Positions 3,026-5,525 of a DNA stretch of 5,525 nt are shown here, in pieces. The position numbers and the translations under genes are program-made. Under the pieces are notes generated by a model. It was not told the origin of the DNA. It did not search any database and was given only the letters and a program-made list of their open reading frames with translations. Numbering within the stretch: position 1 is the first letter of the stretch; each line of letters opens with the position of its first letter. Source of the stretch: a virus; IMG/VR virus record IMGVR_UViG_3300025641_000002, positions 1 through 5,525 of that record; one strand, given 5' to 3'.

Positions 3026-4060
3026 ATGTGCATCGCACCAGTAAAATTAGATGATGGGACGGAAGTTGGGTGTCGCGAATGCTGGCAATGCCGAAAACGT
3101 AGAGTTAACGATTACGTTGGAAGATGCATTGCCGAAAGTAAGTTTTCGAAAAAAACTTACGCTGTAACATTAACGTATGACGGAGACCAAGGCGTTAATG
3201 CAGTAACGTTAATTTATAAAGACGTTCAGGATTTTCTTAAAAGACTGCGTAAAAAACATAAATGTCGTTACATCGTTACTGGAGAATACGGTAGCGCAAA
3301 AGGACGTTCACATTGGCATATAATACTATTCTTTAAGGATAGTTGGCCAGAAGTGACGTCAAACAAAAGGGTAGATTGGAAATATTGGAAACATGGTTTT
3401 AGTTATTTTCAAGAACCGGACTGGAAGGGTTTTGAATATTGCCTAAAATATGTTCTGAAAGATCAGACATCAAGGCAAAGTGATAGCCACTTGGCTATGA
3501 GCAAAAAACCACCACTAGGACACGAGTTTTTTCAACAATTAGCAAAGCAATATGTTGAACAAGCCCTCGTCCCACAAACATATTTCTATAAGTTTGGAGA
3601 CGTCAGGGATTATAAAAACAGAGAAAAGGGGTTTATGATGCAAGGAAAAACAAGAGAAAATTTTATGGAAACTTTTGTCAACCAGTGGGAGGATACATAC
3701 TCTCACGAACCGTTATCGGAATTAGTAACAGACTATTACGACGATATAACGGAAATAGAGTACACGGACGAAGAACTGTACGAAAGATTGCATTATCAAC
3801 CTGTAAAATATGTAGAACCATGGATTGAAGGACAAGGAGACGGAATATTTAAAGATATAGAATTAGTAGAAGCAACGTATGACGGAATACCAATATGTTA
3901 TTGGGATAATAAAAACAAAACAGGCATACATATAGTGACGGAGAATGACGAATGGCACGAAAAAAGACCCGAAGTAATACAAACAATAAAACAAGGACAA
4001 CAAATACAACGACGGCGAACCTACGCCGAAGTACAGTACGCGGAATTGGACGAGGTATAG
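3026..4060 (+). CDS. Rolling-circle replication initiation protein (HUH endonuclease; Microviridae VP4 / gpA-like), 344 aa
   Basis: N-terminal Cys cluster MCIAP...GCRECWQC. Motif I AVTLTY. DFLKRLRKK...RYIVTGEYG. HUH motif HWHIILF (His codons 3311 and 3317). Tyrosine motif YCLKYVLK (Tyr codons 3437 and 3449). This arrangement is the classic gokushovirus-type VP4 layout as I know it. Confidence 0.93.
   Translation: MCIAPVKLDDGTEVGCRECWQCRKRRVNDYVGRCIAESKFSKKTYAVTLTYDGDQGVNAVTLIYKDVQDFLKRLRKKHKCRYIVTGEYGSAKGRSHWHIILFFKDSWPEVTSNKRVDWKYWKHGFSYFQEPDWKGFEYCLKYVLKDQTSRQSDSHLAMSKKPPLGHEFFQQLAKQYVEQALVPQTYFYKFGDVRDYKNREKGFMMQGKTRENFMETFVNQWEDTYSHEPLSELVTDYYDDITEIEYTDEELYERLHYQPVKYVEPWIEGQGDGIFKDIELVEATYDGIPICYWDNKNKTGIHIVTENDEWHEKRPEVIQTIKQGQQIQRRRTYAEVQYAELDEV
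3138..3160 (+). other. Stem-loop GTAAGTTTT-CGAAA-AAAACTTAC inside the Rep gene
   Basis: 9-bp perfect stem with a 5-nt loop. It shares the GTAAGTT/AACTTAC arms with 2892-2909. It lies in codons for ESKFSKKTY. Confidence 0.45.
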
Positions 4061-4254
4061 AAATATACAGTCCACCCGTTGAACAACGGGAGCGAACAGC
4101 CGAACCACCTCCCGAACGGGATCTAGCGAAGCGGAAAAAATCCCCGAAAAACTTTACGGTCAGAGATCTGCGGATAAGGTGTAAGGACAGACCTAAGAAA
4201 AACACCCCTACTGGGGGGTCAGGGTCTAAAAAAACATTTGTACCTTGGTGTTAA
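3952..4254 (+). CDS. Overprinted, highly basic 100-aa ORF (27 K+R, 8 D+E), possibly a DNA-binding or packaging protein
   Basis: ATG at 3952 with GGAG at 3940-3943 (8-nt spacer). It overlaps the last 109 nt of Rep in the -1 frame and then is the only open frame across 4061-4254. The C-terminal part is KRKKSPKNFTVRDLRIRCKDRPKKNTPTGGSGSKKTFVPWC. There is no internal canonical start after the Rep stop. Confidence 0.45.
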   Translation: MARKKTRSNTNNKTRTTNTTTANLRRSTVRGIGRGIEIYSPPVEQRERTAEPPPERDLAKRKKSPKNFTVRDLRIRCKDRPKKNTPTGGSGSKKTFVPWC

Positions 4255-4415: not shown

Positions 4416-4595
4416 TTGCAATTACTACTAATCAAGCAAATTCTAAAACCGATTATCACAAGATGTGGTACTATGCTTGGCGCATCGCTTGCGGGCGCAG
4501 GAATAGCAGTTGGTACAACGGAAAGTATCGTTTTGGGATTTACCGCACTAGCGGGAGTATCGATCGACCTCATAACACGGAGGTGGATCAAATGA
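4416..4595 (+). CDS. Unannotated 59-aa small membrane protein (two Gly/Ala-rich hydrophobic segments, basic C-terminus), holin-like candidate
   Basis: TTG at 4416 preceded by AAGGAG (4404-4409, 6-nt spacer) and an in-frame TAA at 4410. Hand translation gives M(TTG)QLLLIKQILKPIITRCGTMLGASLAGAGIAVGTTESIVLGFTALAGVSIDLITRRWIK. The TGA at 4593-4595 overlaps the next ATG (ATGA). Confidence 0.5.
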   Translation: MQLLLIKQILKPIITRCGTMLGASLAGAGIAVGTTESIVLGFTALAGVSIDLITRRWIK

Positions 4596-4687
4596 AATTA
4601 AAAGACATCATTATAGCAACAGTAGCGGGAATAGTAATGGGTTTAGCCTTATTCTCGGATACGTTGTTAAACGCGGGAGTAATATAA
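4592..4687 (+). CDS. 31-aa single-pass membrane mini-protein MKLKDIIIATVAGIVMGLALFSDTLLNAGVI
   Basis: ATG at 4592 with GGAGG at 4579-4583 (8-nt spacer). It is ATGA-coupled to the upstream mini-ORF, and its stop at 4685-4687 is 1 nt before the VP2-like ATG. It is the C-terminal part of the 74-aa track ORF 4463-4687, whose N-terminal part looks non-coding. Confidence 0.5.
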   Translation: MKLKDIIIATVAGIVMGLALFSDTLLNAGVI

Positions 4688-4688
4688 T

Positions 4689-5444
4689 ATGCCATTTGGA
4701 TTAACATTTGGAAAACTTGCACAAGTAGCACTTGGAGCTTATGGCGCAAAAAAGAGTGCTAAAGCAATGAAAGGCGCAAACGATCTTGATTTGAAAAAAT
4801 TAAGACGTGAAGCAGAAGAAAATGGGTTTAACCCATTAACAGTACTACGAGCCACAGGCGGACAAGGTAGTACAAAAGGCCCATCTGGCGGTTTAGCTAG
4901 TGGGGCATTTTTTAGTACATTTGCACAAGGAATACCAAGTATTCTTGAATCAAATTACGATAAAAAAATGAAAGATGCACAGTTAGCAAGTACAATTGCT
5001 AACACACGTTATACGGGTGCATTAACACATGATTTATTAACAAATCCAAATAAAGGCGGACGAAGAATTGATCCATTAAGTGGATTAGAAATTAAAGACG
5101 CTTTTATACAAGTAATGGGTGATGATGGGAAATTAACAAAAGTTCCCAACAACGAAATTACAGAAGGTAACAATCCAATTGAATTAGCAACAGCTGCAGG
5201 TATGCAAATAACATCAGAAGTTGCAAATAAATTAGGAGTGCCATTACCTACCCCAACATCTTATGTTGATATGGGTGCAAAGGTTTGGAATAAAATTGGA
5301 TTATTATCAAAAGGTGCTTTTGATAAATTAAAATCCAAAGCAACTAAAAGTTATCAAGAAAATCACGGAGCTTTAGCAAGTGATACAATCATAACGTCAA
5401 AAATAGACGATTTTGATTATCTTGATGCATATTTTGGAAAATAA
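4689..5444 (+). CDS. Minor capsid / DNA pilot protein (VP2 / H-like), 251 aa
   Basis: GGGAG at 4675-4679, 9 nt before the ATG. It has a Gly/Ala-rich hydrophobic N-terminus (MPFGLTFGKLAQVALGAYGA) and then a basic helix. The EENGFNPLTVL motif resembles the G(L/I)NP motif I associate with gokushovirus-type VP2. It sits directly upstream of the capsid gene on the circle. Confidence 0.7.
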   Translation: MPFGLTFGKLAQVALGAYGAKKSAKAMKGANDLDLKKLRREAEENGFNPLTVLRATGGQGSTKGPSGGLASGAFFSTFAQGIPSILESNYDKKMKDAQLASTIANTRYTGALTHDLLTNPNKGGRRIDPLSGLEIKDAFIQVMGDDGKLTKVPNNEITEGNNPIELATAAGMQITSEVANKLGVPLPTPTSYVDMGAKVWNKIGLLSKGAFDKLKSKATKSYQENHGALASDTIITSKIDDFDYLDAYFGK

Positions 5445-5525
5445 AATGTGCGCCAAGTGTAAAAAAATACGAAAAATTATAACCAAAATCATTGCAAGGA
5501 GAAAACGCAAATGAGAATGACTGAA
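5399..5525. repeat. Terminal direct repeat, copy 2 (includes the duplicated capsid start codon at 5511)
   Basis: Identical to nt 1-127, offset 5,398 nt. ATG 5511 corresponds to ATG 113. Confidence 0.97.

Follow-up and report, generated by a model that had tools for sequence, protein, structure and literature searches.

A conserved gene overlapping the 3' end of Rep in an Occultatumvirinae-like microvirus, and its relationship to virion protein Gp10 of Rhodobacter phage Ebor

Introduction

The closest described counterpart of the gene presented here belongs to Rhodobacter phage Ebor. LC-MS/MS of purified Ebor virions found Gp10 to be the sole protein present in significant amounts besides VP1 and VP2 (PMC11980548). 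Gp10 is 145 aa long, has a pI of 11.3, and is encoded by a gene that overlaps the 3' end of Rep; the Ebor authors, who regard it as an analog of VP8/J, named it a "putative charge-mitigating virion protein" (PMC11980548). The same authors noted that in location and size it resembles scaffolding protein B, whose gene is overprinted on gene A, and their report of Gp10 conservation concerns "Tainavirinae" only (PMC11980548). The icosahedral maps of Ebor showed no density for Gp10 (PMC11980548), and docking on the capsid is thus putative.

The present work concerns an ORF at positions 3952-4254 of a microvirus genome, which an earlier sequence-only reading had flagged as a candidate overlapping gene for a basic DNA-binding or packaging protein, perhaps born de novo by overprinting. 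We compare the locus with related genomes, place its product in a protein family, and weigh the functions that might be proposed for it.

Results

The window, that is, the whole 5,525-nt stretch of DNA analyzed, holds one entire circular microvirus genome, 5,398 nt in length; positions 5399-5525 repeat bases 1-127, and all genes are on the + strand. The gene for VP1, the major capsid protein (113-1792), is followed directly on its 3' side by a gene for a 174-aa orphan with an acidic helical tail (1847-2371), and then by an M15 peptidase (2319-2885), Rep/VP4 (3026-4060; PF23343 at 5e-19, phrog_942 at 1.6e-39), whose 3' end hosts the overlap, the target ORF (P0001, 3952-4254) for a 100-aa basic, apparently disordered protein that is a homolog of Ebor Gp10, two small membrane ORFs (4416-4687), and a pilot-like protein (4689-5444). 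VP1 matched neither Pfam Phage_F nor any PHROG at E<=1; in several JGI records its close homologs go under the name "predicted Rdx family selenoprotein", apparently a mis-annotation. The closest isolates, with Rep about 65% identical, are Roseobacter phages CRPss-151 through CRPss-155, which have been assigned to "Occultatumvirinae" (PMC11499846). The window phage is an Occultatumvirinae-like marine single-stranded DNA microvirus.

The ORF begins at ATG 3952-3954, with a Shine-Dalgarno GGAG (3940-3943) placed 8 nt upstream within Rep codons T-E. The ATG is itself embedded in Rep codons GAA-TGG (E-W), and most relatives retain this Rep Trp. The ORF lies in the -1 frame relative to Rep, since (3952-3026) mod 3 = 2, overlaps it by 109 nt up to the Rep stop at 4058-4060, and continues for another 194 nt to its own stop at 4252-4254. 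The Rep-tail overlap (3952-4060) encodes residues 1-36, an N-terminal arm rich in Arg, Lys, Thr, and Asn. The non-overlapping part (4061-4251) encodes residues 37-100, among them a conserved PPE-x-x-[LI]-A-K-R-K-K box (residues 52-63, 4105-4140) and the family-defining C-terminal signature C77-K-x-R-P...G-rich...F-V-P-W-C100 (4180-4251). The product, 100 aa with 27 K+R against 8 D+E, has a pI of 11.5, a net charge of +19, a Pro-rich middle (residues 41-54), and FVPWC at its end. In its start signal, its overlap, and its composition, the ORF is as the sequence-only reading had described it.

That reading had also called this the only open frame past Rep. The statement holds for the + strand, where 4061-4254 contains no other ORF of at least 40 aa, but not for the complement, where two antisense ORFs, 3849-4205 (118 aa) and 3863-4108 (81 aa), are open in the window and largely open in relatives too. 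T is scarce on the + strand (AT skew 0.44-0.52); the complement therefore has few A and few stops, and stop codons become less frequent on either strand. When 3952-4254 is shuffled by mononucleotide, 0.55% of the shuffles retain 100 stop-free codons. An open frame by itself is thus only moderately unlikely, and it is comparative evidence that lifts the ORF above chance. The 118-aa antisense ORF was considered as a gene in its own right and rejected: it shares its wobble positions with the sense frame, its pN/pS of 0.52 exceeds the 0.34 of the sense frame, and it lies opposite a T-poor strand. Both antisense ORFs are best explained by composition and wobble sharing, not as genes.

Comparative evidence came from 38 related IMG/VR loci gathered via Rep, plus CRPss-151 and CRPss-155; 31 related loci cover the ORF region. 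In every one of these 31, the frame and its stop are intact, encoding 100-114 aa, down to 36% protein identity. All 31 products start with MAR[R/K]K, and the end is F[VI]PWC, sometimes plus K, even at 36-44% identity. An ACGGAG sequence stands upstream in 31 of 32 genomes, including CRPss-151 and CRPss-155; the exception, L032, has ACGGAA. Length differences among relatives are in-frame indels, restricted to the middle of the protein. Residues P53, P54, E55, A59, R61, K62, and K63 are invariant in an alignment of ten homologs (A1).

Diversity tests used 21-25 close genomes; the pooled pairwise values ignore phylogenetic non-independence, yet the contrasts are large and consistent. Synonymous diversity in Rep is 0.062 across codons 310-344, the overlap, against 0.175 elsewhere, which places the overlap below all 275 other 35-codon windows of Rep (minimum 0.101). 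Third-position diversity in Rep falls likewise to 0.058 in the overlap, from 0.20-0.26 upstream. Past the Rep stop, diversity by codon position of the ORF is 0.071/0.067/0.169; the ORF frame there has a pooled pN/pS of 0.29, whereas the remaining + frames have values of 2.07 and 1.04. Suppressed synonymous variation in the Rep tail and purifying selection in the second frame, the two signals that the sequence-only reading had proposed looking for, are both present. ORF 3952-4254 is a genuine conserved gene under purifying selection, and it is correctly delimited; translation would start from its own GGAG/ATG within the Rep tail.

A second trough in Rep synonymous diversity, 0.056-0.076 against about 0.175, occurs at codons 97-115 (3314-3370). 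It coincides with a DNA stem-loop at approximately 3325-3343 (ACTATTCTTTAAGGATAGT; fold z-score -2.76). This stretch, inside the HUH-motif region, may act in cis, for example as the nick site of Rep or as an origin.

Sequence searches of Pfam, PHROGs, and the PDB with the ORF product and 36 family members found no family, and the best score in the ESM Atlas, 0.77, fell short of a usable level. A tblastn search of phages with the C-terminus of P0023 returned no match, probably as a result of low-complexity filtering. When the profile built from alignment A1 was searched against 1.84 billion representatives (E<1e-3), it matched 38 representative clusters. The description that follows covers 36 of them, two matches inside very long proteins having been left out. 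Members are 65-246 aa in length, with basic low-complexity bodies and pI of about 10-12. The sole clearly conserved element is C-K-x-R-P-x-x-N-x-P-x-G-G-G-G-x-K-x-F-[VI]-P-W-C, at most a few residues from the C-terminus, with 27-57% identity to the C-terminus of the window protein. In the alignment of the 36 representatives (A2), columns C27, P31, P48, and W49 are invariant, and the K, R, G, and last C are nearly so.

A short form of the motif, C-K-x-R-P-(12-16 residues)-F-[VI]-P-W-C, was searched in IMG/VR as a degenerate DNA pattern and found in 104 stretches, where by our own estimate about five would be expected by chance. Nearly all lie on contigs of 4-7 kb, or on contigs of about 11 kb with two copies. 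They encode 93 distinct proteins, mostly 100-190 aa with net charges mostly of +20 to +40, and most of these begin with MA[RK][RK]. A same-strand Rep was detectable for 78 of the motif ORFs, and positions were counted for these. The start lies no more than 400 nt from the Rep stop in 75 of the 78; 68 overlap Rep, by 1-386 nt and in either alternative frame (48 versus 20), while seven start 21-122 nt downstream. Several GenBank records show the same arrangement, namely those of Rhizobium phages, Flyfo and Tortoise microviruses, CRPss-154, CRPss-251, Ciona-associated microviruses, and an Eel River pequenovirus; most of them leave the site un-annotated.

The relationship to Ebor emerges from the same motif. 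In the Ebor record (PP754850.1), the gene for Gp10 (XAV39057.1) occupies 5719-6156 and Rep 4776-6065, and the Gp10 translation ends with the family motif, ...CKMRP...KGGGSRPFVPWCKKV. Comparison of alignment A2 to Gp10 by hhalign gives a probability of 96.8% and an E-value of 2.5e-10, limited to Gp10 residues 117-144 of 145. The window protein itself matches Gp10 in BLASTP at an E-value of 2e-5, and a tblastn search started from Gp10 finds the same microviruses again. By these comparisons, the C-terminus of the ORF product is homologous to that of Ebor Gp10, with the homology resting on a motif of about 28 residues and the rest being low-complexity.

The distribution bears directly on the proposal of de novo birth by overprinting, which fails for the gene as a whole. 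The family spans Roseobacter, Rhizobium, and Rhodobacter phages and pequenoviruses, its relation to Rep varies in frame and ranges from an overlap of 386 nt to a gap, at most 122 nt wide, and its most conserved part (residues 52-100) is located outside Rep. Nor does the basic N-terminal stretch appear to be "simply" the A-rich Rep tail read in another frame, as had been suggested, given that a start of the MA[RK][RK] type recurs whatever the length or frame of the overlap. The gene occurs in several lineages with its conserved core outside Rep; its overlap with Rep is a flexible N-terminal arrangement, not the origin of the gene. With its C-terminal motif present in 104 IMG/VR stretches, nearly always at the 3' end of Rep, the ORF is no lineage-specific de novo orphan. 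Judging from this distribution, the Gp10-like gene appears to be an old Rep-linked core gene of several microvirus lineages.

Database records reflect the gene incompletely. Hypothetical proteins of CRPss-151, CRPss-152, and CRPss-153 (e.g., XAO36503.1) are orthologs at the same locus, that of CRPss-151 being 44% identical over the full frame, but the GenBank start at 1008 is too late, the conserved ATG being at 915. In Rhizobium phage RHph_TM1_7A, likewise, the ortholog at the same locus (QIG67577.1, a hypothetical protein) is given a GTG start at 1264 that is too late, the likely start being ATG 1150. GenBank gives no function to any of these orthologs. The gene is un-annotated in CRPss-154, CRPss-155, CRPss-251, and many Tortoise and Flyfo microviruses. 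Records in which it is missing or started late are GenBank PP558214-PP558219, MN988476, OL617027, and MK7656xx. In CRPss-154 (L046), an HNH endonuclease gene (1130-1669) is inserted right behind the Gp10-like ORF (end 1142), overlapping its last codons.

Discussion

The ORF product, a homolog of Gp10 in sequence, is probably its counterpart in function too: an internal, disordered, basic virion protein that neutralizes the charge of DNA. This reading as a virion protein follows from the C-terminal motif, genomic position, and charge that the product has in common with Ebor Gp10, which has been detected in virions by mass spectrometry, and the earlier suggestion of a DNA-binding or packaging protein stands, on the same similarities, as the likeliest interpretation. 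The Arg/Lys-rich N-terminal arm and the basic body would bind and partly neutralize the single-stranded DNA genome during packaging, a role like that of J/VP8. The C-terminal module (CK-RP...FVPWC) would retain the protein in the particle by docking on a conserved partner, for which the inner face of VP1 is the most probable candidate.

Structure prediction by AF2 with the family alignment gives a pLDDT of 55 and a disordered chain with only two 4-residue helices, as would be expected of an extended J-like peptide. Net charge is +19 for the window protein, +19 for Chp2 ORF8/VP8 (44 aa), and +22 for Ebor Gp10. For the ORF product, we infer DNA binding, capsid anchoring, and copy number alike; with 60 copies per virion assumed, about 20-25% of genome phosphates would be neutralized in all three phages. 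Among 34 circular genomes, net charge showed no correlation with genome length (rho -0.15, p 0.40). A complex prediction that paired the last 50 residues (A2) and VP1 (alignment A3) scored 0.00, a result that is neutral as evidence.

A different small basic product is encoded just upstream of VP1. The mini-ORF at 5446-5514 (equivalent to 48-116) has 22 codons, is basic, carries a CxxC motif (M-C-A-K-C-K-K-I-R-K...), and ends in an ATGA shared with the VP1 start. Its DNA is almost invariant in about 30 close relatives, with few changes, mostly synonymous, and just upstream of it the sequence of relatives differs completely, in what looks like a recombination boundary. The mini-ORF could be the true J analog, which would count against the Gp10-like ORF in that role. 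The viable isolate CRPss-151 lacks its ATG and CxxC, L032 lacks it entirely, and the VP2-VP1 gap of Ebor, only 28 nt, has no room for it; the mini-ORF is therefore less universal than the Gp10-like gene.

Other explanations for ORF 3952-4254 differ in what they make of its C-terminus, its position, and its openness. We regard as unlikely the explanation that the product is an internal scaffold, or a bifunctional scaffold and DNA-binding protein, like phiX174 B, whose C-terminal aromatic residues bind coat protein and which is expelled on packaging. The C-terminus would bind coat protein in procapsid assembly, and the protein would then stay inside, with no separate J. The strongest constraint does fall in the C-terminal module and not in the basic arm, the window genome has no match to VP3 or to a scaffold family, and the Ebor GenBank record calls Gp10 a "putative bifunctional structural protein"; the resemblance to B in location and size (PMC11980548) is a positional analogy only. 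The window genome does, however, offer a separate scaffold candidate in the 174-aa protein at 1847-2371, with its acidic helical tail. Retention in the mature virion, moreover, would be unlike the internal scaffolding proteins of characterized microviruses, which are not known to stay in mature virions. The scaffold explanation and a charge-neutralizing virion protein are partly compatible, not exclusive.

Position gives rise to a quite improbable alternative, that of a non-structural factor like VP5 or protein C, acting with Rep to switch from double-stranded DNA replication to single-stranded DNA synthesis and packaging. Chp2 ORF5 does directly follow ORF4/Rep, and linkage to the Rep 3' end is near-universal in the family, so that the analogy to VP5 drawn in the sequence-only reading survives as far as position goes. 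It does not extend to the proteins: Chp2 ORF5 is acidic and looks non-repetitive, with no profile similarity (hhalign 0.4%), while the window protein is predicted to be disordered with its net charge of +19, and the Ebor homolog is a component of the virion (PMC11980548). The last alternative denies the gene altogether, attributing the open frame to the composition of a T-poor + strand and treating 4061-4254 as a non-coding cis element. The fraction of shuffles that stay open, the open antisense frames, and a pS in the ORF-only part (0.22) somewhat below that of Rep (0.34) are all in keeping with it, but a codon periodicity that fits the ORF frame, the low pN/pS in that frame, indels that preserve it, a protein motif recurring in 36 clusters at 27-57% identity, and a homolog verified by mass spectrometry leave it with negligible probability, and we consider it effectively refuted.

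With the product read as a charge-neutralizing virion protein, a broader proposal can be put forward tentatively, although we would sooner bet against it. The CK-RP...FVPWC protein may be an unrecognized core gene product of Tainavirinae, Occultatumvirinae, pequenovirus-like phages, and others, replacing J/VP8 and perhaps the scaffold; its two invariant Cys residues and Gly-rich loop would form a capsid- or DNA-anchoring module, or one dependent on metal or disulfide, unlike anything in phiX174 or the gokushoviruses. Whatever the merits of that proposal, the results assign a likely structural role to a gene that most database records of these abundant marine and soil microviruses omit or cut short, and show that the Ebor Gp10 family reaches well beyond Tainavirinae. 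The compact C-terminal motif provides a searchable family signature. The locus also provides a worked example of a long-lived Rep-tail overlap: the gene endures even as the overlap changes in length and frame.

Among the known systems, gokushovirus VP5 (Chp2 ORF5) and phiX174 C resemble the window protein in position right after Rep only. The likeness to phiX174 J and gokushovirus VP8 goes further, taking in a basic N-terminus, a Gly-containing hydrophobic/aromatic C-terminus, an unfolded chain, and, by analogy, the presumed role of neutralizing packaged single-stranded DNA. J and VP8, however, are about 25-45 aa, so that the 100-aa window protein is 2.5-4 times longer; they are encoded at another genomic position; and they are without the Cys...Cys motif. 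The J/VP8 family (PF04726) gave no Pfam match at E<=1, and hhalign against Chp2 ORF8 gave 0.5%. The ORF product is best read as analogous to J/VP8, without detectable homology.

Ebor Gp10 is the closest match. Both proteins are low-complexity, are encoded in a same-strand overlap with the 3' end of Rep, and end in CK-RP...GGG...FVPWC, and they agree in pI (11.3 for Gp10, 11.5 here) and in net charge (+22 and +19). They differ in length (145 versus 100 aa) and in the extent of Rep overlap (347 versus 109 nt), are not alignable outside the last 28 or so residues, and come from different groups, Tainavirinae for Ebor and an Occultatumvirinae-like group here. Presence in the virion, documented by LC-MS/MS for Gp10, is predicted for the window protein. 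Rather than representing a new kind of system, the ORF joins the published Ebor Gp10 family.
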